NCBI RefSeq assembly: GCF_003790525.1
Contig: NZ_CP033635.1
Length of the DNA stretch: 64,000 nucleotides
Source: Escherichia coli
GTDB taxonomy: Bacteria; Pseudomonadota; Gammaproteobacteria; Enterobacterales; Enterobacteriaceae
Direction: 5' to 3' (one strand)
The translations under genes and the position numbers were made by a program. Each line of letters opens with the position of its first letter. Position 1 is the stretch's first letter. Below are positions 1,979 through 57,488 of this stretch, piece by piece. The notes under the pieces are model-generated. The model worked only from the letters and a program-made list of their open reading frames with translations. It was not told the DNA's origin and made no database searches.

Positions 1979-2482
1979 ATGACTGAAATGGCTAAAGGAA
2001 GCGTGACGCATCAGCGGTTAATCGCTTTATTATCGCAAGAAGGTGCTAACTTCCGCGTCGTTACCCATGAAGCGGTAGGTAAATGTGAAGCGGTGTCAGA
2101 AATTCGTGGCACCGCTTTAGGCCAGGGGGCTAAGGCACTGGTATGTAAAGTCAAAGGCAATGGCGTAAATCAACATGTTCTGGCGATCCTCGCTGCCGAT
2201 CAACAGGCCGATCTGAGCCAACTCGCCAGCCATATAGGCGGATTACGCGCTTCGTTGGCCAGCCCAGCGGAAGTCGATGAACTCACAGGCTGTGTCTTCG
2301 GCGCGATCCCCCCTTTCAGCTTCCATCCAAAACTCAAACTGGTTGCCGACCCCCTACTCTTCGAACGATTTGATGAAATCGCCTTCAATGCAGGCATGCT
2401 GGATAAATCCGTTATTTTGAAAACCGCGGATTATTTGCGTATTGCGCAACCAGAACTGGTCAATTTCCGCCGCACTGCGTAA
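1979..2482 (+). CDS. yeaK: YbaK/ProX-family aminoacyl-tRNA deacylase YeaK, 167 aa
   Basis: Full-length ORF; recognised YeaK sequence; RBS AGGAG upstream. Confidence 0.93.
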   Translation: MTEMAKGSVTHQRLIALLSQEGANFRVVTHEAVGKCEAVSEIRGTALGQGAKALVCKVKGNGVNQHVLAILAADQQADLSQLASHIGGLRASLASPAEVDELTGCVFGAIPPFSFHPKLKLVADPLLFERFDEIAFNAGMLDKSVILKTADYLRIAQPELVNFRRTA

Positions 2483-2587
2483 CTAGCCTGTCCGTTCAAT
2501 AAGCAGAACGGACAAAACCAGCACAGCAGCAATGGCAAAAAACGATGACGTGATAATCAGTGTCTCGACGAACATTTGATCGTTCAT
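2483..2587 (-). CDS. yoaI: small membrane protein YoaI, 34 aa
   Basis: Minus-strand translation [34 protein letters not shown]; below the ORF-track size cutoff; stop codon directly abuts the yeaK stop. Confidence 0.8.
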
Positions 2588-2756: not shown

Positions 2757-3203
2757 ATGTTTGATGTCACTTTGCTGATCCTGCTCGGGTTAGCTGCGCT
2801 GGGCTTTATCAGTCATAACACCACTGTCGCCGTTTCAATTCTGGTGTTGATCATTGTCCGCGTCACACCGTTAAGCACCTTTTTCCCGTGGATTGAAAAA
2901 CAGGGGCTAAGTATCGGGATAATCATTCTGACGATTGGCGTTATGGCTCCCATCGCCAGCGGGACGCTACCGCCCTCAACCCTGATTCACTCATTTCTGA
3001 ACTGGAAATCGCTGGTGGCAATTGCAGTCGGCGTTATTGTCTCCTGGCTGGGGGGGCGCGGCGTGACGTTAATGGGCAGCCAGCCGCAACTGGTCGCCGG
3101 GCTGCTGGTGGGCACTGTTTTAGGCGTGGCGCTGTTTCGCGGCGTACCGGTTGGCCCGCTTATTGCCGCGGGTCTGGTTTCGCTGATTGTGGGGAAACAG
3201 TAG
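2757..3203 (+). CDS. yeaL: UPF0756 inner membrane protein YeaL, 148 aa
   Basis: Full-length ORF; highly hydrophobic multi-TM protein; conserved position. Confidence 0.92.
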
Positions 3204-3981
3204 TTAATCCCGCAATATATCGGCCTGGCGTTTGCCCCAGGCCTTTCTTAAACATAGTAATAAAGGCCGTTGTTGAATCATACCCCAGCGTATGAGCAAC
3301 TTTCTGTACAGTATCGCCTTTCACTAATCCCTGAAGCGCCATAATCAGCTGTAACTGCTGACGCCACTGGCGAAAACTCAACCCCGTCTCTTTCACTATC
3401 AGCCGGGCAAGATTGCGTTCACTCATCGCAAAAAAGCCAGCCCATTGCCCCAATGAGCCCCACTCGACGGGCTCTTTCGCCATCATCTCCACCATCGTGC
3501 GGATTTTAGGATGAGAAGAAACGGGCAGGTGCAGCTGTTGTTGTGGCTGCTGAGGGAGTTCATCAAACAGGACCTGAATTAATCTGCGGGTCATCGGCTC
3601 AGCACGCTGAGTCGTCGTCCTGTTTGCCAGGGTTAAAATTAATTCCCGGCATAAGGGCGATATTTTCAATGTGCAACATGTTGTCGGCATTGTCACTGCG
3701 CTGGGCTCGATAAACAGAAAACAGAGTTCAGCGTTAGCTGTCACTTGATTGCTATGTTTCACCCCGCCCGGTATCCAAACCGCATATTGTGGCGGCACCA
3801 TCCACAAAGCATTTTCCACCGTACAGGTAATTGCACCATGTAGCGCCAGTATCAACTGCCCTTTGCGGTGCTGATGTACAGGACTGGTTAACTCATCCGT
3901 TCCGGCGTGAATACAAAATGCGACCGCGGCCTCATGGTGTCGGTCGGGTTCATAGCCATTGAGATTCAACCTGTGCATCAT
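3160..3981 (-). CDS. nimR: AraC-family transcriptional regulator NimR (YeaM), 273 aa
   Basis: Full-length ORF; C-terminal AraC-type HTH; divergent from nimT; 3' end overlaps yeaL convergently by 44 nt. Confidence 0.93.
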
Positions 3982-16635: not shown

Positions 16636-16663
16636 GTCAAAAAAAACGCCGGATTAACCGGCG
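16636..16663 (-). terminator. intrinsic terminator downstream of fadD
   Basis: Minus strand ACGCCGG-TTAAT-CCGGCGT followed by TTTTTTTT. Confidence 0.7.
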
Positions 16664-16683
16664 TCTGACGACTGACTTAACGC

Positions 16684-18369
16684 TCAGGCTTTATTGTCCA
16701 CTTTGCCGCGCGCTTCGTCACGTAATTCTCGTCGCAAAATTTTTCCGACGTTAGATTTCGGTAACTCATCACGAAACTCCACCAGCTTCGGTACTTTGTA
16801 GCCCGTGAGCTGACGGCGGCAAAAAGTCACCAGTGACTCTTCGGTAAGCGATGGATCTTTTTTCACAACGAAGATTTTCACCGCTTCACCACTAGAGCCG
16901 GAAGGTACGCCAACAGCCGCGACTTCCTGTACGCCAGGATGCTGCATGACGACATCTTCAATCTCGTTGGGATAGACGTTAAAACCGGAAACCAGAATCA
17001 TGTCTTTTTTACGATCGACAATGCGCAGGAATCCTTCTTCATCCATCACCGCGATGTCGCCGGTGTGTAACCAGCCATTTTTGATGATTTCATCGGTAGC
17101 ATCCGGACGCTGCCAGTAACCCAGCATCACCTGCGGTCCTTTGACACAAAGCTCACCTGGTTGACCAGGTGGTACTTCATTATCATCATCATCCACCAGT
17201 TTGGCTTCCGTCGACGGCACCGGCAAACCGATGCTACCACTATGATAATCAATATCATACGGGTTAACGCTCACCAGCGGCGCACACTCGGTCAGGCCAT
17301 AACCTTCCAGCAGATACTGTCCAGTCAGTTTCACCCAACGTTCTGCCACCACTTGCTGAACAGGCATCCCTCCGCCTGCGGAAAGATGCAGACTGGAGAA
17401 ATCCAGCTGCTGGAACTCTTTATTGTTCAGCAACGCATTGAACAAGGTGTTAACGCCAGTGATAGCGGTAAACGGATATTTCGCTAACTCTTTTACCAAC
17501 CCTGGAATATCGCGCGGGTTAGTGATAAGCAGGTTCTGCCCCCCCAGTTCGATAAACAGCAGGCAGTTAATGGTCAGTGCAAAAATGTGATACAGCGGCA
17601 GCGCCGTCACCACCAGCTCTTTGCCCGGATGCAACAGCGGACCATAGGTCGCGTTAACCTGTTCCAGGTTCGCCAGCATATTGCGGTGAGTCAGCATCGC
17701 GCCTTTCGCCACACCAGTGGTACCGCCGGTGTATTGCAGGAAAGCTAAATCTTCCGGCACCAGTTCGGGTTTGACGTACTGCATCCGGTAGCCGTTGTGC
17801 AGGGCGCTACGAAATGAAATGGCATCTGGCAGATGGTATTTCGGCACCAGACGCTTGATGTATTTAACAACGAAATTGACTACCGTGCCTTTTGCCGTAG
17901 ATAGCTGATCGCCCATACGGGTCAGAATTACGTGCTGAACGGCGGTTTTATCAACCACTTTTTCCAGAGTGTGGGCAAAGTTAGACACGATAACAATCGC
18001 CGATGCGCCGCTATCGTTAAGCTGATGCTCAAGTTCACGCGGGGTATACAACGGGTTAACGTTTACGACAATCATCCCGGCACGCAAAATGCCAAACAGC
18101 GCCACCGGATATTGCAATAAATTAGGCATCATCAACGCAACGCGATCGCCTTTCTTCAGTCCCAACCCTTGTTGCAAATAAGCGGCAAACGCGCGACTGC
18201 GTTCTTCCAGTTTGCGGAAGGTCATCACCTCCCCCATATTCACAAACGCGGGTTGATCGGCGTAGCGCGCGACCGACTGCTCAAACATATCTACCAGAGA
18301 TTGATAACGGTCAGGGTTGATCTCCGTCGGAACGTCCGCGGGATAACGGTTAAGCCAAACCTTCTTCAA
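16684..18369 (-). CDS. fadD: long-chain-fatty-acid--CoA ligase FadD, 561 aa
   Basis: ORF 16684..18435; the 561-aa product begins [33 protein letters not shown]..., implying a TTG start at 18369; AMP-binding motifs present. Confidence 0.93.
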
Positions 18370-27048: not shown

Positions 27049-28647
27049 ATGCAAAAAGCACAACGGATCATTAAAACCTATCGCCGTAATCGAATGATTG
27101 TTTGTACGATTTGCGCCCTCGTTACGCTCGCTTCGACCCTGAGCGTGCGATTTATTTCACAGCGTAACTTAAATCAACAACGGGTAGTACAATTCGCCAA
27201 TCACGCTGTAGAGGAATTAGATAAAGTACTGCTTCCCCTACAGGCAGGTAGCGAAGTCTTGCTTCCGCTGATTGGTCTGCCCTGCTCTGTCGCCCATTTG
27301 CCATTACGTAAACAGGCGGCAAAACTCCAAACTGTGCGATCCATTGGCCTGGTGCAAGACGGCACACTTTATTGCTCCAGCATTTTTGGTTATCGCAATG
27401 TGCCCGTCGTGGACATTCTGGCTGAACTTCCTGCACCGCAACCACTTTTACGCCTGACGATCGACCGTGCCCTGATTAAAGGCAGTCCGGTTTTGATTCA
27501 GTGGACGCCAGCAGCGGGCAGTAGCAAAGCTGGGGTCATGGAGATGATTAACATCGACTTACTGGCGGCAATGCTGCTTGAGCCACAACTGCCGCAAATC
27601 AGTAGCGCCAGCCTGACGGTGGACGATCGGCATTTGCTCTATGGTAATGGGCTGGTAGATTCCCTTCCGCAACCTGAAAACAATGAAAACTACCAGGTTT
27701 CTTCGCAACGCTTTCCTTTTACCATTAACGTTAATGGTCCGGGGGCTACGGCGCTGGCATGGCACTATCTTCCAACACAATTACCGCTGGCGGTGCTGCT
27801 AAGTTTACTGGTGGGCTACATCGCCTGGCTGGCGACCGCTTACCGGATGAGCTTTTCCCGCGAAATCAATCTGGGCCTGGCGCAACATGAGTTCGAATTG
27901 TTCTGTCAGCCTTTGCTTAATGCGCGCAGCCAGCAATGTATTGGTGTAGAGATTTTGCTTCGCTGGAACAATCCGCGTCAGGGCTGGATTTCACCGGATG
28001 TGTTTATTCCTATCGCGGAAGAACATCATTTAATTGTGCCACTGACCCGCTATGTGATGGCAGAAACCATTCGTCAGCGCCATGTTTTCCCGATGAGTAG
28101 TCAGTTTCATGTTGGCATTAACGTCGCACCCAGCCATTTTCGCCGTGGTGTGCTGATAAAAGATCTCAATCAGTACTGGTTTAGCGCTCACCCGATTCAG
28201 CAACTGATCCTCGAAATCACCGAACGCGATGCCTTACTGGATGTTGATTATCGGATTGCCCGCGAGCTACATCGTAAAAACGTCAAACTGGCGATTGATG
28301 ACTTCGGCACCGGCAACAGTTCATTTTCCTGGCTTGAAACATTACGTCCTGACGTGCTGAAAATTGATAAGTCATTTACCGCAGCTATAGGTTCTGACGC
28401 GGTTAACTCGACGGTGACCGATATCATCATCGCTCTGGGGCAAAGACTGAATATTGAACTGGTGGCGGAGGGTGTGGAAACACAAGAACAGGCGAAGTAT
28501 TTGCGCCGTCATGGGGTGCATATTTTGCAAGGGTATTTGTACGCACAGCCGATGCCGCTACGTGATTTTCCCAAATGGCTGGCGGGCAGCCAACCGCCGC
28601 CCGCCCGGCATAATGGACATATCACGCCCGTTATGCCGTTACGTTAA
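27049..28647 (+). CDS. pdeD: c-di-GMP phosphodiesterase PdeD (YoaD), CSS-EAL, 532 aa
   Basis: ORF 27019..28647; ATG at 27049 gives 532 aa; N-terminal TM plus periplasmic CSS domain; EAL domain with E(I)L signature in VEILLRW. Confidence 0.92.
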   Translation: MQKAQRIIKTYRRNRMIVCTICALVTLASTLSVRFISQRNLNQQRVVQFANHAVEELDKVLLPLQAGSEVLLPLIGLPCSVAHLPLRKQAAKLQTVRSIGLVQDGTLYCSSIFGYRNVPVVDILAELPAPQPLLRLTIDRALIKGSPVLIQWTPAAGSSKAGVMEMINIDLLAAMLLEPQLPQISSASLTVDDRHLLYGNGLVDSLPQPENNENYQVSSQRFPFTINVNGPGATALAWHYLPTQLPLAVLLSLLVGYIAWLATAYRMSFSREINLGLAQHEFELFCQPLLNARSQQCIGVEILLRWNNPRQGWISPDVFIPIAEEHHLIVPLTRYVMAETIRQRHVFPMSSQFHVGINVAPSHFRRGVLIKDLNQYWFSAHPIQQLILEITERDALLDVDYRIARELHRKNVKLAIDDFGTGNSSFSWLETLRPDVLKIDKSFTAAIGSDAVNSTVTDIIIALGQRLNIELVAEGVETQEQAKYLRRHGVHILQGYLYAQPMPLRDFPKWLAGSQPPPARHNGHITPVMPLR

Positions 28648-28650
28648 CAC

Positions 28651-30207
28651 TTACTCATCTTCATCGTGCGCCGGTTGCTCTTTAACAATGCGAACCAGAT
28701 CAACACGATAATCATTGGCTTCAATGATGGTGATATGCAGTGGCCCTACATCAATCACATCGCCCACACGGGGAATGTGACCATTTGCCGAGATCACGAG
28801 GCCCGCGACCGTCGCGATATCATCGTCATCGGCAAGGTGCTCAACATCAAGCGCCTGCTGCAAGGCATGCAAATCTGTACCGCCTTTTACCAGCCAGCCG
28901 TCACCGTCGGTAATGATTTCCGGCGTTTCGTCAGCGTCCGGGAATTCACCCGCAATGGCTTCCAGCACATCCAGCGGCGTGACCAGACCTTGTACCACAC
29001 CAAACTCGTTGGTCACGATAACAAAGCTCCCGCGAGCACGACGCAGTACGCCCAGCAGGTTGATCGGATCGAGGGTTTCCGGGACGATAATCGCCGGAGA
29101 CGCCGAAGCAATCGCCGCCACATCAACGCCCTCTTCCAGCGCCACCAGCAGTTCTTTAGCACGTACGATACCGATGATTTCATCCAGTTCACCGCGACAT
29201 ACCGGGAACAGACTGTGCGGTGAAGAGAGCAGTTGCTCGCGGATTTCATCGACCCCGAGATTAGCGTCAACCCAGCTTATTTCACCGCGCGGCGTCATGA
29301 TCCCGCGCAGAGAACGCGACGCCAGCGTCAGTACGCCGTTAATCATGTAACGTTCTTCTTCGGCAAATGCACCTTCCGGGATCGGCATCGGCATCGGGTT
29401 ATCGGCATCGTGCTGGACATTGGCCTGACGTTTCCCGCCCATCAAACGCAGGATGGCATCGGCAGTACGCGCTCGCAGCGGCAAAGTCGACTGGTGACGA
29501 ATAAAGTTGCGACGCGCAATTTGGTTAAACACTTCGATGATGATCGAGAAGCCAATCGCGGCATACAGGTAACCTTTCGGAATGTGGAAACCGAAACCTT
29601 CTGCCACCAGACTCAGACCTATCATTAACAGGAAGCTCAGACAGAGCACCACCACCGTTGGATGCTGGTTAACAAATCGCGTCAGCGGTTTCGATGCCAG
29701 CAGCATAACCGCCATCGCAATCACTACCGCCGCCATCATCACTGGCAGATGGTTAACCATCCCTACTGCCGTAATTACCGCATCCAACGAGAAGACGGCG
29801 TCAAGGATGACGATCTGTGTGACGACCACCCAGAAACTGGCGTAGCCTTTACCGTGGCCGGAATCATGATCGCGGTTTTCCAGCCGTTCATGCAGTTCGG
29901 TTGTTGCTTTGAACAGCAAGAATATCCCCCCGAACAACATAATCAGGTCGCGTCCGGAGAAGGAGAAATCCATGACGGTAAATAGCGGTTTGGTCAGCGT
30001 GACCATCCATGAAATCAGCGACAGCAGCCCCAGACGCATAATCAGCGCCAGTGATAATCCCAGCAAACGCGCTTTATCGCGTTGTTTTGGCGGCAGTTTG
30101 TCAGCAAGAATGGCGATGAAGACCAGGTTATCGATACCCAGCACAATTTCGAGAACAACAAGCGTGAGTAGCCCCGCCCAAATCGAGGGGTCCATTAAGA
30201 ATTCCAT
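28651..30207 (-). CDS. yoaE: TerC-family/CBS-CorC domain inner membrane protein YoaE, 518 aa
   Basis: Full-length ORF; N-terminal TerC-like TM region, C-terminal CBS pair and CorC/HlyC domain. Confidence 0.93.
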
Positions 30208-33422: not shown

Positions 33423-33881
33423 ATGACAATCACGGACCTGGTACTGATTCTTTTCATCGCCGCACTCCTGGCCTTCGCGATCTACGATCAGTTCATCATG
33501 CCCCGCCGTAACGGCCCCACTCTGCTGGCAATTCCTTTGCTCCGGCGTGGTCGCATCGATAGCGTTATATTCGTCGGATTGATTGTCATTCTTATCTATA
33601 ACAACGTCACGAATCATGGCGCGCTAATAACAACATGGTTATTAAGTGCACTGGCTCTGATGGGTTTTTATATATTCTGGATCCGCGTTCCGAAGATCAT
33701 CTTTAAACAAAAAGGTTTTTTCTTCGCCAATGTCTGGATTGAATATAGCCGAATCAAAGCGATGAACTTGTCGGAAGATGGCGTGTTGGTGATGCAATTA
33801 GAACAACGTCGGCTGTTAATCCGCGTTCGAAATATCGACGATCTGGAAAAAATTTATAAGCTTCTCGTTTCAACTCAATAG
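33423..33881 (+). CDS. yobD: UPF0266 inner membrane protein YobD, 152 aa
   Basis: Full-length ORF; RBS GGAGG upstream. Confidence 0.92.
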
Positions 33882-34084
33882 GTTATGAATTTAGCCAAAG
33901 CTATGTTTAGTGTATTTTTAATAATCAGACATAGCTTAGGCTATATTACCTCTTCCCTTATTTGTTATTTATTTTAACGTTTCATTGATATATAAATCTA
34001 AATGAAAATCGTTATCAATAAAGTGATGAAATAATATATTCCAACAGTTGTTTTATATTCTCAAAATATGTTAAGGTTGCGCCC

Positions 34085-34215
34085 TCATTTGGGGAGTAGC
34101 CGATTTCCAGATTCCGGAAATGTACGTGTCAACATACTCGTTGCAAAACGTGGCACGTACGGACTGAACACTTTCAGTCAGGCGAGACCATATGCACATC
34201 AATCGCTATGCCTGC
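34085..34215 (+). promoter_or_regulatory. Mn2+-sensing yybP-ykoY riboswitch in the mntP 5' leader (approximate bounds)
   Basis: Conserved UUGGGGAGUAGC (34090..34100) and ACAUACUCGUUGCAAAACG / CAGGCGAGACC elements within a roughly 230-nt leader upstream of mntP; mntP is known to carry this riboswitch. Confidence 0.7.
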
Positions 34216-34309: not shown

Positions 34310-34876
34310 ATGAATATCACTGCTACTGTTCTTCTTGCGTTTGGTATGTCGATGGATGCATTTGCTGCATCAATCGGTAAAGGTGCCACCCTCCATAAAC
34401 CGAAATTTTCTGAAGCGTTGCGAACCGGCCTTATTTTTGGTGCCGTCGAAACCCTGACGCCGCTGATCGGCTGGGGAATGGGCATGTTAGCCAGCCGGTT
34501 TGTCCTTGAATGGAACCACTGGATTGCGTTTGTGCTGCTGATATTCCTCGGCGGGCGAATGATTATTGAGGGTTTTCGTGGCGCAGATGATGAAGATGAA
34601 GAACCGCGCCGTCGACACGGTTTCTGGCTACTGGTAACCACCGCGATTGCCACCAGCCTGGATGCCATGGCTGTGGGTGTTGGTCTTGCTTTCCTGCAGG
34701 TTAACATTATCGCGACCGCATTGACCATTGGTTGTGCAACCTTGATTATGTCGACATTAGGGATGATGGTTGGTCGCTTTATCGGCTCAATTATTGGGAA
34801 AAAAGCGGAAATTCTCGGCGGGCTGGTGCTGATCGGTATTGGCGTCCAGATCCTCTGGACGCACTTCCACGGTTAA
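34310..34876 (+). CDS. mntP: manganese efflux pump MntP (YebN), 188 aa
   Basis: ORF 34256..34876; ATG at 34310 ([21 protein letters not shown]...) gives 188 aa. Confidence 0.92.
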
Positions 34877-35682
34877 TAAGAACGCTGCCAGAGGTGAATA
34901 TTAAAGTCCGTCTGGCAGTCGAACACTTCTTTTGCGGCCAGTGTTTGCCAGACTTCTGACTTCGCACGCCAGGCAAACGGCGTCATCTGCAATAATGCGA
35001 CGGCTTCGTCACCGCGAAGACGCATCGGATAACACAACTCATCACTCTGCTGTAATGTAAAACCTTCCAGTTGTTCTGCATGTGGTGCATGAAGATGTAC
35101 TTCATTGTAAATCAGCCCCTTCAGCTCCATCAAATGTCGCGGTCCCGGCGTGGCAGTAATGACCCAACCGCCAGGCTTCACTACTCGCGCTAATTCTTCT
35201 GCTTTACACGGCGCGTAAATACGTATTATGGCGTCCATACTGGTATCGGAAAACGGCAAACGGTGGCTGGAAGCAACACAAAAAGTGACCTGCGGATAGC
35301 GTTTCGCCGCCGCTTTTATCGCTACCTTCGAGACATCCAGACCAAACGTGGTGATTTCGGGCAGCGCATCGGCAAATGCGTGTGTGTAATACCCTTCACC
35401 ACAGCCAATATCCAGCACCGCCGTGGCCTTTTCATCAAGCCGTTCCCGCAGTTGGGCGACAATTGCATCACGCAGCGGCTGATAATGTCCGGCATCTAAG
35501 AATGCGCGGCGTGCTTGCATCATTTCCGCGCTGTCGCCCGGATCACGAGACCGTTTATGCTGAACGGGCAGCAGATTGACATACCCTTCTTTCGCCATAT
35601 CAAACTGATGTCACTGGGGACAGATATAGCTGTTTTTTTCACGCGAAAGAGGCTGATGGCAAAGTGGACAGGAAAACGACAT
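34873..35682 (-). pseudogene. rlmA: 23S rRNA (guanine745-N1)-methyltransferase RlmA (RrmA/YebH), interrupted by in-frame TGA at codon 24
   Basis: Minus strand from ATG at 35682 reads [34 protein letters not shown]...; stop at 35617..35619; longest intact ORF is 34873..35598 (241 aa from Met29) versus the 269-aa characterised protein. Confidence 0.6.
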
Positions 35683-35775
35683 GACAACTCCGGCAGGATA
35701 CTAAAGGCCGCAAGTGTAACGCGAATCACGCGGCGGGCAAATATCCGAACGCCAGGAGCGAAGATAAAGCAAAGT

Positions 35776-35803
35776 AAAAAGCCTCGCATTCGGCGAGGCT
35801 TTA
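35776..35803 (-). terminator. intrinsic terminator downstream of cspC
   Basis: Minus strand AAAGCCTCGCC-GAAT-GCGAGGCTTT followed by TT. Confidence 0.7.
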
Positions 35804-35847
35804 TAGCGAGATTGAAGCGTATTCACACTTCAGATCAGTGGATTCGA

Positions 35848-36057
35848 TCAGATAGCTGTTACGTTAACAGCTGCCGGACCTTTCTGGCCGTCCTGAATTT
35901 CGAACTCAACGTTCTGACCTTCAGCCAGAGTTTTGAAGCCATTACCCTGGATAGCGGAGAAGTGTACGAACACGTCTTTGCTGCCATCAGCCGGAGTAAT
36001 GAAGCCAAAACCTTTAGACTCGTTGAACCACTTAACCTGACCTTTAATCTTTGCCAT
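35848..36057 (-). CDS. cspC: cold shock-like protein CspC, 69 aa
   Basis: Full-length ORF; [22 protein letters not shown]... with RNP motifs. Confidence 0.97.
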
Positions 36058-36069
36058 TTGAAAAATTCC

Positions 36070-36213
36070 TTAGATTGTTTTCTTCGCCCGCAGGCATAAC
36101 ATAGATAAAACTGACACATTACTGCATGAGGCACCAATATAAGGCTCGGCAGAGAAGCGGTATTCAACGTCAACGTGTTTACTCAGGACTTCTTTACTGA
36201 AAATGCCACACAT
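36070..36213 (-). CDS. yobF: small protein YobF, 47 aa
   Basis: Minus-strand translation [47 protein letters not shown]; ends 12 nt upstream of cspC (yobF-cspC operon). Confidence 0.82.
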
Positions 36214-36882
36214 AAACAGAACTGTACCTCGTTTAACCCGAAATCTGTTATCACATACAACGTTAATTATGGCAAGCCATTTTTAAACATGTCTCGATCA
36301 GACGCACAAATCTCGATACGTCTTCCACTTTTTTTGCACACTTATGCAACGGAATACGCGCCGATATATCATTGTGCTTAACCTTGCCAGTTCAGGCAGA
36401 TACTTAAACTGACGTATTTTCTAACATAGTTCAATAAGTTCAGTTGTTCCATGCCAATGGGAGAAGTTATTACATAGTGCGTGCAATATCACATTTTCTG
36501 CTATGCAATGAATAAAAAGTTATATCACTTTTTCTCATAAAACAGTCAGTTAACGGCCATCAATCACCCCAAAGAGAAGTCAATCGCCAAAGGTATTGTA
36601 AATTTAAAATAAGAAAAATTGATGAATGCGCAAAAAAATCAAGAGAGAAACGTTTCGCTAATAAATAATACCACGCTTAATCACAAATCCGATGTAAACA
36701 TCCTAATAAATTAATGGGCTAAATATCTTTTTCTGATATCCCGTTACGCAAATAAATAATATGATAATTATTTGAAGTCAGACCAGAGTTTTAATTTGAA
36801 GCAGTTGCACCATGACAGTGCGTATAATCAGGATGAATTGAGTAACCCTTCAACGACGGGGTTACTCAAGATTGAGGAAGGA

Positions 36883-44879: not shown

Positions 44880-46163
44880 ATGGCTCTTAACACACCACAA
44901 ATTACGCCGACAAAGAAGATAACAGTGAGGGCTATCGGCGAGGAACTGCCGCGTGGTGATTACCAACGTTGCCCGCAATGTGACATGCTGTTTAGCCTGC
45001 CCGAGATAAATTCTCATCAAAGTGCCTATTGTCCGCGCTGTCAGGCAAAAATTCGTGACGGGCGCGACTGGTCGCTAACGCGCCTGGCGGCAATGGCGTT
45101 CGCTATGCTGTTGTTGATGCCGTTTGCCTGGGGCGAACCGCTGTTGCATATCTGGCTGTTAGGCATCCGTATTGACGCCAACGTTATGCAAGGCATCTGG
45201 CAAATGACCAAACAGGGCGATGCGATAACGGGGTCGATGGTCTTTTTTTGCGTTATTGGTGCCCCCCTTATTCTGGTGACCTCCATAGCTTATTTATGGT
45301 TTGGTAACCGACTGGGAATGAATTTACGTCCGGTACTGCTGATGCTTGAGCGACTGAAAGAGTGGGTAATGCTCGATATCTACCTGGTCGGCATTGGCGT
45401 TGCTTCTATAAAGGTACAGGATTATGCCCATATCCAGGCGGGTGTCGGCTTGTTCTCTTTTGTGGCGTTGGTGATTTTAACGACGGTGACGTTGTCACAT
45501 CTTAATGTCGAAGAACTGTGGGAGCGATTTTATCCGCAGTGCCCCGCTACGCGAAGGGACGAGAAACTCCGTGTCTGTCTTGGGTGTCATTTTACCGGCT
45601 ATCCTGATCAGCGTGGTCGCTGCCCGCGTTGCCATATCCCGCTACGCCTGCGTCGCCGTCATAGTCTGCAAAAATGCTGGGCGGCGCTGTTAGCGTCAAT
45701 CGTTTTGTTGTTACCTGCCAACCTGTTGCCTATCTCTATCATTTATCTGAATGGTGGTCGGCAGGAAGATACGATTCTTTCCGGAATTATGTCGCTGGCA
45801 AGTAGCAACATTGCGGTTGCGGGAATCGTGTTTATCGCCAGTATTCTGGTACCGTTTACTAAAGTGATCGTCATGTTCACTTTACTGTTGAGTATTCATT
45901 TTAAATGCCAGCAAGGTTTACGCACACGCATTCTGTTACTGCGGATGGTGACCTGGATTGGTCGCTGGTCGATGCTCGACCTGTTTGTCATATCTTTAAC
46001 CATGTCGCTGATTAATCGCGATCAGATCCTCGCTTTTACTATGGGACCGGCTGCGTTTTATTTCGGCGCAGCGGTAATTTTGACTATTCTTGCTGTGGAA
46101 TGGCTGGACAGCCGCTTACTTTGGGATGCACATGAGTCAGGAAACGCCCGCTTCGACGACTGA
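44880..46163 (+). CDS. letA: PqiA-family inner membrane protein LetA (YebS), 427 aa
   Basis: Full-length ORF; two PqiA repeats each with a Cys4 zinc-ribbon (CPQC...CPRC; CLGC...CPRC). Confidence 0.93.
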
Positions 46164-50742: not shown

Positions 50743-50934
50743 ATGTTCGCGCTGGTACTTTTTGTTTGCTACCTGGATGGCGGTTGTGAAGATATTGTTG
50801 TGGATGTCTACAACACGGAACAGCAGTGTCTTTATTCTATGAGCGATCAACGGATCCGCCATGGCGGTTGTTTTCCGATTGAGGATTTTATAGATGGTTT
50901 CTGGCGACCTGCACAGGAATACGGTGATTTTTAA
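50743..50934 (+). CDS. yebW: uncharacterised protein YebW, 63 aa
   Basis: ORF 50659..50934; ATG at 50743 gives 63 aa (MFALVLFVCYLDGGCEDIVVDVYNTEQQCLY...). Confidence 0.85.
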   Translation: MFALVLFVCYLDGGCEDIVVDVYNTEQQCLYSMSDQRIRHGGCFPIEDFIDGFWRPAQEYGDF

Positions 50935-51591
50935 TTATTGCAATTGCACAAGAGTCAGTTCGCCCCCAAAGACAGCACCTGTATCAATATAATGCAGGTT
51001 GCCAATATCCACGCGATGGCGCAACGGTGTATGACCAAACCAGAAATGATCAGCACCTGTAATTCCCTGCCCTTTTTGGCGTTCACCTAACCGCGAGCGG
51101 CTCCACAAGACCTGATGCAAATCGACGTCCTTTTGCCATTCATAAACATCATCCGGATAATCGGCATGGGCAATAACATGTTTGCCGGTGCGACTGTGTA
51201 CTTCAAGAATAAAGGGCAAATACTGACATTTTTCCAGCGCCGTTTTCGCTTGTTTCTGTTGATAATCTGCCAGCGCAATAAACCAGTTGCCGCCATTCAT
51301 CAACCACAAAGACATCTGCTGGGATGCCAGCGCATCCATCGCCATCTGTTCATGATTGCCTCTTACCGCACGAACCCAATGTTGTTCCAGTAACTGCAGA
51401 CAACGTAAACTTTGCTGCCCACGATCGATAACGTCTCCCACTGAGATAAGTAAATCTCGCCACGGATCAAAACGACAATGCCATAATTTGCGGCGCAACT
51501 GCTCAAGACAACCGTGTATATCGCCTGAAAGCCAGATATGTCGCCATTGATGACCCGCAATTCTCTGATAAACGGGCGCAGGCTGTTTCAT
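50935..51591 (-). CDS. pphA: serine/threonine protein phosphatase 1 PphA (PrpA), 218 aa
   Basis: ORF 50935..51594; metallophosphatase motifs (GDIHG, GDVIDRG, GNHE); stop directly abuts the yebW stop. Confidence 0.93.
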   Translation of the reverse strand: MKQPAPVYQRIAGHQWRHIWLSGDIHGCLEQLRRKLWHCRFDPWRDLLISVGDVIDRGQQSLRCLQLLEQHWVRAVRGNHEQMAMDALASQQMSLWLMNGGNWFIALADYQQKQAKTALEKCQYLPFILEVHSRTGKHVIAHADYPDDVYEWQKDVDLHQVLWSRSRLGERQKGQGITGADHFWFGHTPLRHRVDIGNLHYIDTGAVFGGELTLVQLQ

Positions 51592-51725
51592 CAATATTTT
51601 CCTCCCGCGCTAAAGATCACATAATCTTAACAAGAATGTTAAAAAACGCTGGACTCAGACAGTAGAGTGTGTGTTATGGTTGACTATAAAGTCAGCGAAG
51701 GGAATGCTTCTGGCTTTTAACAGAT

Positions 51726-51828
51726 AAAAAGAGACCGAACACGATTCCTGTATTCGGTCCAGGGAAATGGCTCTTGGGAGAGAGCCGTGCGCTAAAAGTT
51801 GGCATTAATGCAGGCTTAGTTGCCTTGC
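51726..51828 (-). ncRNA. sdsR: small regulatory RNA SdsR (RyeB)
   Basis: Minus strand reads GCAAGGCAACUAAGCCUGCAUUAAUGCCAACUUUUAGCGCACGGCUCUCUCCCAAGAGCCAUUUCCCUGGACCGAAUACAGGAAUCGUGUUCGGUCUCUUUUU, matching remembered SdsR including its 3' terminator hairpin and U-tail; sigma-S-type -10 (CTATTCTTAA) just upstream. Confidence 0.85.
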
Positions 51829-51915
51829 TCTTTAAGAATAGATGACGACGCCAGATTTTCCAGTTTGCGTGCAAAATGGTCAATAAAAAGCGCGGTGGTC
51901 ATCAGCTTAAATGTT

Positions 51916-54741: not shown

Positions 54742-57488
<2,747 letters not shown>

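Follow-up and report, generated by a model that had tools for sequence, protein, structure and literature searches.

A 44-nt convergent overlap of yeaL and nimR in Escherichia coli that looks like a by-product of stop-codon loss

Convergent genes that overlap at their 3' ends are known to arise by loss of a stop codon and 3' extension of the reading frame (PMC2478687; PMC2716372), and the same origin is given by Rogozin et al. (2002), as cited in PMC2478687. The overlaps described in this class (PMC2478687; PMC2716372; PMC4161906) are tail-to-tail, originate from a point change, run to a chance stop, are conserved among close relatives only, and have one dominant frame of constraint. The overlap of yeaL and nimR in Escherichia coli is alike on each of these points, with no essential difference; in this case the base concerned (3189, A to G) and the accompanying change in YeaL (Ile145Val) can both be named. 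The type of overlap and its origin are already known. Minimal stop-stop overlaps of the form [TC]TA[AG] are a second described class, to which the TTAA of exoX/ptrB and of mntP/rlmA conforms without differences, with yeaK/yoaI and yebW/pphA as the abutting form. Rho-dependent termination of antisense read-through has also been described (Adams et al. 2021, PMC7815308; Dar and Sorek 2018, PMC6061677), and the read-through of exoX, yoaE, rlmA, and yeaK is of this kind; yeaL/nimR would resemble it in the C-rich, G-poor composition of the RNA past its stops. Bidirectional terminators and collision-driven termination at convergent pairs were reported by Ju et al. (2019), as cited in bioRxiv 10.1101/2022.10.23.513370. 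The yeaL/nimR pair is alike in being convergent, with overlapping 3' ends and a hairpin near the junction. It differs in that this hairpin, with its U-tract on one side only, is part of the nimR CDS, precedes the nimR stop by 60-80 nt, and cannot serve nimR.

The window analysed here is a stretch of 64,000 nt of E. coli DNA. It was compared with E. coli SMS-3-5 (NC_010498.1, positions 1324715..1388714, reverse complement) and with the RefSeq annotation of K-12 MG1655. The coordinates of the junctions in the SMS-3-5 RefSeq annotation are those in the window, and the same six tight junctions are annotated in K-12 MG1655 (Table 1). The overlapping or touching gene ends in the window are real and already annotated in E. 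coli. An earlier sequence-only reading of this DNA had listed four of them, namely the 44-nt overlap of yeaL and nimR, the TTAA that spans the exoX and ptrB stops, and the immediately adjacent stops of yeaK/yoaI and of yebW/pphA. All four were recovered at the same positions, with gene ends in SMS-3-5 and K-12 unchanged from those it gave; the list was incomplete, with mntP/rlmA and pdeD/yoaE missing. The window differs from the SMS-3-5 RefSeq sequence at 4 of 64,000 bases, all four being G:C to A:T changes and nonsynonymous. One of them, R24* (CGA to TGA in codon 24, window 35611-35613), truncates rlmA in the window, and this allele is present in 0 of 5,422 complete E. coli genomes. The others are mntP A139T, yebQ G396E, and holE P70L (sites 34724, 40084, and 53938).

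Table 1 Features of the yeaL/nimR junction and of the other tight convergent junctions in the window
Feature	Position	Strand	Description	Basis
yeaL CDS	2757..3203	+	148 aa, DUF441/UPF0756 inner-membrane protein; stop TAG 3201-3203	ORF, Pfam, RefSeq
nimR (yeaM) CDS	3160..3981	-	273 aa; stop TAA (+ strand TTA 3160-3162)	ORF, Pfam, RefSeq
yeaL/nimR	3160..3203	+/-	Convergent, 44-nt shared CDS	ORFs, RefSeq
Earlier nimR stop position	3187..3189	-	+ strand TTG, nimR CAA (Gln265)	Junction alignment
Terminator-like hairpin	3222..3249	+	GGCCTGG-N8-CCAGGCC then TTTCTT; starts 19 nt past yeaL stop	Consensus scan
C-rich, G-poor RNA past nimR stop	3000..3159	-	Antisense to yeaL; candidate Rho-loading zone	Composition
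yeaK/yoaI	2480..2485	+/-	Abutting, + strand TAACTA; yeaK TAA 2480-2482, yoaI stop 2483-2485 (CTA on + strand, TAG read on -)	ORFs, RefSeq
yebW/pphA	50932..50937	+/-	Abutting, + strand TAATTA; yebW TAA 50932-50934, pphA stop 50935-50937 (TTA on + strand)	ORFs, RefSeq
exoX (54742..55404) / ptrB (55401..57461)	55401..55404	+/-	4-nt overlap, TTAA = both stops	RefSeq
mntP/rlmA	34873..34876	+/-	4-nt TTAA overlap	
pdeD/yoaE	28645..28653	+/-	TAA and TAA, stops 3 nt apart (28647/28651)	

Both yeaL and nimR are genuine genes, with stops fixed by reading frames that are anchored in conserved domains. In YeaL, Pfam DUF441 covers residues 7-145 of 148 (E = 2.7e-44). NimR is an experimentally characterised AraC-family repressor of nimT and of itself (PMC5934670), and matches were obtained to AraC_binding (residues 22-147), HTH_18 (180-255, E = 1.5e-18), and HTH_AraC (224-256), which is the AraC/XylS architecture of an N-terminal cupin/AraC ligand-binding domain and a C-terminal double HTH. 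Orthologues of YeaL were found in 80 genomes and those of NimR in 60. Many long convergent overlaps in databases are misannotated 3' extensions (PMC2478687), and the yeaL/nimR overlap could in principle be an artefact of this sort, with one stop misplaced or one of the ORFs no gene. We consider this hardly credible, because both frames are anchored by strong domain matches that reach the overlap or extend into it, stop codons do not share the ambiguity of starts, and 44 nt is below the 60-nt class examined in PMC2478687. The region was also found at an identity of at least 98% in 5,407 of 5,426 complete E. coli genomes, and K-12 is identical inside the overlap; no polymorphism of the overlap was seen within this set, and the 44-nt state is fixed within E. 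coli.

The overlap consists of yeaL codons 135-148 plus the stop, opposite nimR codons 260-273 plus the stop. On the yeaL side it encodes the conserved last membrane helix of DUF441 (residues 135-148), and on the nimR side a 14-residue, non-conserved tail past the AraC-type HTH domain, which ends near residue 257. Codon position 1 of either frame faces position 1 of the other, 2 faces 3, and 3 faces 2, so that a synonymous change at a yeaL third position alters the second base of a nimR codon.

For the comparison across species, one genome per species was scanned, giving 80 Enterobacteriaceae loci with yeaL, in which stops were placed by codon walking. Sequence resembling nimR adjoins yeaL in 60 of these loci, two of which hold nimR fragments (L004 at spacing 0, and L035 at a 216-nt gap). 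Between the extremes of a 216-nt gap and a 45-nt overlap, the 60 loci show a variety of junctions, most often a 17-nt overlap (27 loci) and next most often the 44-nt overlap (13 loci). The remaining overlaps are of 20 nt (three loci), 6 nt (two loci), and 45 nt and 21 nt (one locus each); the genes abut (0 nt) in two loci and are separated by gaps of 5 nt (five loci), 1 nt and 4 nt (one locus each), and 122, 127, 181, and 216 nt (one locus each).

The difference between the 17-nt and 44-nt states can be traced to a single base. At the position of the earlier nimR stop, 27 other species read TTA or TCA (nimR TAA or TGA), which gives a NimR of 264 aa and an overlap of 17 nt. In this 17-nt state, the nimR stop is read from the opposite strand of a triplet to which yeaL codon 144 gives its last two bases and codon 145 its first (xTT/Axx or xTC/Axx). 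Base 3189, a G in the window, opens yeaL codon Val145. Where YeaL has valine at this residue (GTG or GTT) and not Ile145 (ATx), as in E. coli and most Citrobacter, the nimR stop becomes CAA (Gln). Past Gln265, NimR reads nine more codons up to the TTA at 3160-3162, which is formed by yeaL Leu135/Ile136. In the junction alignment, TTA/TCA versus TTG at the 17-nt position tracks Ile145 versus Val145, and close relatives differ in junction state: Ile145 with 17 nt is found in one Escherichia lineage (L005) and in Citrobacter youngae ATCC 29220 (L015), and Val145 with 44 nt in the window and in C. youngae CCUG 30791 (L011), respectively. The nimR frame running antisense across yeaL contains 9 stops in 148 codons (about 1 per 16), so a nine-codon extension is what chance predicts.

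The variation inside the overlap follows the YeaL frame. Among 14 genomes with the 44-nt overlap, there are 11 variable sites, of which 10 are yeaL third positions, 1 is a synonymous first position, and 0 are second positions. Residues 135-148 of YeaL are identical in 14 of 14, and the NimR tail occurs in 12 versions with a mean identity of 0.70. Some NimR proteins end at 257-258 aa, right past the HTH domain (L010, L029, and L045). The extension thus has the properties of a stop-loss overlap, lying outside the HTH domain, not being conserved as protein, having a chance-like length, and facing an earlier stop in orthologues. The nimR-nimT pair is absent beside yeaL in E. albertii, E. whittamii, Escherichia sp. 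E1V33, and one genome labelled E. coli (L006-L009), where yeaO comes about 80-100 nt after yeaL. In Escherichia sp. MOD1-EC7003, nimT is absent and nimR is present as fragments only (residues 2-42 and 250-273; L004:2432-2616), remnants that look like a deletion scar.

We therefore read the convergent junctions in the window as ordinary compact tail-to-tail junctions, and yeaL/nimR among them as a passive overlap produced by a shift of the stop codon, with the YeaL frame setting the constraints; we put the probability of this reading at about 85%. On this view, a single base change did away with an earlier nimR stop, and the resulting 44-nt overlap appears to be a harmless side effect and not a regulatory device. 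In the proposed sequence of events, the change of base 3189 from A to G (Ile145Val in YeaL) would abolish the nimR stop, and NimR would extend by nine codons to the next chance stop. Judging from the natural variation, the NimR tail would be dispensable and would drift with the synonymous sites of yeaL. Transcripts of yeaL would end at the hairpin and U-tract inside nimR, or further on via Rho, and those of nimR would end inside yeaL via Rho; with transcript ends of this kind, the two mRNAs would be complementary over at least 44 nt. Where stops abut or share a 4-nt TTAA, transcription running on into the partner gene would be ended by Rho or by embedded hairpins.

Published 3' ends from K-12 bear on this model. 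According to the supplements of PMC7815308 combined with K-12 coordinates, rlmA transcripts have their primary 3' end 37 nt into mntP, and the rlmA/mntP junction carries a Rho termination region with a score of 10.2 (PMC7815308). The same source reports further Rho termination regions, which are sensitive to BCM. Two run antisense to a partner gene, one within ptrB at a distance of 471 nt from the exoX stop (score 6.3) and one within pdeD at 252 nt from the yoaE stop (score 5.5); another follows the yeaK stop by 148 nt and lies beyond yoaI (score 2.8). No 3' ends or Rho regions were found for yeaL/nimR in the PMC7815308 supplements, searched by gene name or coordinate and covering three growth conditions, and no yeaL/nimR 3' ends matched in the TERMITe and TRS supplements. 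The RNA past both stops is C-rich and G-poor and in this is consistent with Rho-loading sites. The C/G ratio, which in the window has a median of 1.0 and a 95th percentile of 1.77, is 1.35-2.0 in the ~160 nt that follow the nimR stop and reaches 2.3 past the yeaL stop. On the nimR (-) strand past its stop, the consensus scan returned no intrinsic terminator. Beside the yeaK junction, a strong 9-bp hairpin at 2489-2514 (TGTCCGTTC-N8-GAACGGACA) lies in the last yoaI codons, directly past the yeaK stop. For the 71-nt stretch that holds it (2470-2540), the folding z-score is -2.9, equalled by 1 of 200 shuffles. The hairpin lacks a U-tract on both strands and may act as a 3' protective stem-loop for Rho-terminated yeaK transcripts.

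The sequence-only reading had held that such arrangements imply transcriptional interference or antisense overlap of 3' ends. Antisense 3' overlap is supported, through the read-through at four neighbouring tight junctions in K-12, and mRNAs that carry the full yeaL and nimR CDS are necessarily complementary at their 3' ends. The implied interference did not gain support. Excludons are loci in which a long antisense transcript spans a neighbouring gene and functionally opposed genes are expressed reciprocally. yeaL/nimR would resemble them in having opposite-strand neighbours with overlapping transcripts and differs in that its arrangement is not conserved. If the overlap were a functional antisense module of this type, mutual transcription would lead to collision of RNA polymerases or to duplex cleavage by RNase III, and one gene would go down when the other is induced. 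A complementarity of at least 44 nt that is guaranteed by the geometry, the lack of an intergenic terminator between the two genes, the documented read-through into partner genes at the neighbouring junctions, and the collision-driven termination described in the literature for convergent pairs all fit such a module. We nevertheless judge it improbable, since the arrangement is not kept across genera (from the 216-nt gap to the 45-nt overlap), nimR-nimT is missing in several Escherichia lineages, the NimR tail is not conserved, a functional link between YeaL and NimR/NimT is not known, and the data from three growth conditions list neither 3' ends nor Rho regions nor antisense signals for yeaL/nimR, which fits low expression, at which collisions would be rare. 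Taken together, the range of junction states, the drift seen in the NimR tail, and the several Escherichia lineages that have lost nimR-nimT argue against a conserved role of the CDS overlap.

It had also been claimed that these arrangements leave no room for terminators. There is indeed no intergenic room, and consensus scans for intergenic terminators at the six tight junctions found none; the claim is overstated in that signals can sit in the opposing CDS, an example being the hairpin past the yeaL stop (Table 1). This hairpin (stem and loop at 3222-3243) sits in the nimR codons for a conserved 11-residue HTH motif. A 7-bp stem with 6 G-C pairs encloses an 8-nt loop, and the U-tract that follows reads TTTCTT in E. 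coli, with TTTTTT in its place in Citrobacter and Salmonella; for yeaL, these are the sequence features of a canonical intrinsic terminator. The hairpin folds at -14.1 kcal/mol (z-score -1.66), a stability that 13 of 200 shuffles also reach. Over 43 distinct sequences, 78.7% of the cells are paired, with little covariation; covariation was also tried as support for the hairpin with all 45 sequences and set aside as weak, with one pair showing a CG/GC exchange and 21% of the cells unpaired. In 20 Escherichia/Citrobacter sequences, the four wobble columns of the stem have minor-allele fractions of 0-0.05, and the three wobble columns of the loop have fractions of 0.45-0.65. Equally conserved sets of four wobble columns number 18 of 3,060 (nominal p of about 0.006, from a hand count in which 18 of the 20 sequences are Citrobacter and not independent). 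The stem sites are variable in the Klebsiella/Enterobacter clade, about half of whose sequences have a broken stem, and the mean fold energy there is -7.3 kcal/mol versus -14.5 kcal/mol in Escherichia/Citrobacter. Term-seq of K-12 reports no 3' end at the hairpin (near 1874840; no coordinate beginning with 18748), perhaps because yeaL is poorly expressed under the conditions sampled.

The hairpin is a candidate yeaL terminator or 3' stabiliser. That it has been selected as such, which would be compatible with a passive overlap of the coding sequences, is a tentative explanation that we hold to be rather unlikely on balance. The stem composition, the fold energy, and the U-tract so close to the yeaL stop speak for it, as does the contrast between conserved stem and variable loop wobble columns, but the z-score is modest with 13 of 200 shuffles folding equally well, conserved amino acids dictate most of the U-tract and three of the seven pairs, the Citrobacter-dominated set does not give independent sites, the stem fails in about half of the Klebsiella/Enterobacter clade, and K-12 Term-seq lists no 3' end here. 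The pattern is suggestive of a lineage-specific yeaL terminator. Because the stem wobble sites are near-invariant in Escherichia/Citrobacter while the loop wobble sites vary, some selection on RNA structure may act at the junction, and the description of the junction as purely passive is possibly too strong for the flanking 30 nt. A bolder version, which seems to us slightly more doubtful still, is that in Escherichia, Citrobacter, and Salmonella the ~30 nt for the conserved NimR motif double as an intrinsic terminator of yeaL on the other strand, with synonymous sites of nimR held by selection and with the codon-145 toggle making the length of a regulator depend on a conservative substitution in a membrane protein. 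A bidirectional terminator was considered and rejected, as the sole hairpin is upstream of the nimR stop inside its CDS and the scan reports the + strand only. A structured leader or attenuator upstream of yeaL (2640-2760) was likewise rejected, with a z-score of +1.3, and no known RNA families were found at the junctions.

The frequency of overlaps was compared with what is usual for E. coli. The window contains 13 convergent pairs, with spacings of -44, -4, -4, 0, 0, 3, 21, 45, 46, 55, 58, 119, and 143 nt. Combining two published counts, 75 convergent overlapping pairs (PMC4161906) and 704 convergent pairs (bioRxiv 10.64898/2026.03.23.713779), gives a base rate of 10.7% in E. coli, and 3 overlapping pairs of 13 is not clearly above it (P(≥3/13) = 0.15). 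As a control, four 50-kb regions of K-12 (200 kb) with 28 convergent pairs were parsed by eye. Three of the 28 overlap, each by 4 nt, and six are spaced by 3 nt or less. Between window and control, Fisher tests gave p = 0.28 for overlaps and p = 0.11 for spacings of 3 nt or less, neither a significant enrichment. The median spacing is 21 nt in the window versus 62 nt in the control (Mann-Whitney p = 0.02), a tighter spacing that weighs somewhat against reading these junctions as ordinary. A local enrichment of overlaps was accordingly rejected (p = 0.15-0.28), the overall spacing alone being somewhat tighter. Spacings of 4-nt overlap and 0 nt are common minimal states of convergent genes, and among the junctions in the window only the 44-nt overlap of yeaL and nimR is unusually long. 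In window and control taken together (41 convergent pairs, a small sample parsed by eye), 12 pairs are spaced by 3 nt or less, 0 between 4 and 20 nt, and 29 by 21 nt or more.

The overlap is of little importance beyond annotation and housekeeping; it illustrates at the level of single bases how convergent genes come to overlap and switch between states, with one conservative Ile/Val change in YeaL adding or removing nine NimR residues. Terminators and Rho sites of tightly packed convergent genes lie within the opposing CDS. In engineering work, a deletion, tag, or recoding placed at the 3' end of yeaL, nimR, exoX/ptrB, or mntP/rlmA changes the partner gene or the end of its transcript.

Other features of the window were recorded alongside. 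Co-directional overlaps are present at yebS/yebT (letA/letB; 32 nt, 46132-46163) and yoaL/yoaE (13 nt, 30195-30207). Known RNAs in the window are the antisense sRNA pair RyeA/SdsR, sroD, a match to the cspA-type thermoregulator, and the mntP Mn2+ riboswitch (51722-51866, 16640-16725, 35773-36233, and 34083-34179, respectively). The thermoregulator match overlaps the cold-shock gene at 35848-36057 and its upstream region; RefSeq names this gene cspE in SMS-3-5 and cspC at the same position in K-12, an inconsistency of naming. The riboswitch match scores 41.9 bits, just below the Rfam gathering score of 45. Upstream of it, the stretch 33877-33959 gives weak matches to several microRNA-precursor models on both strands, which suggests a long palindromic hairpin, possibly a repeat element.
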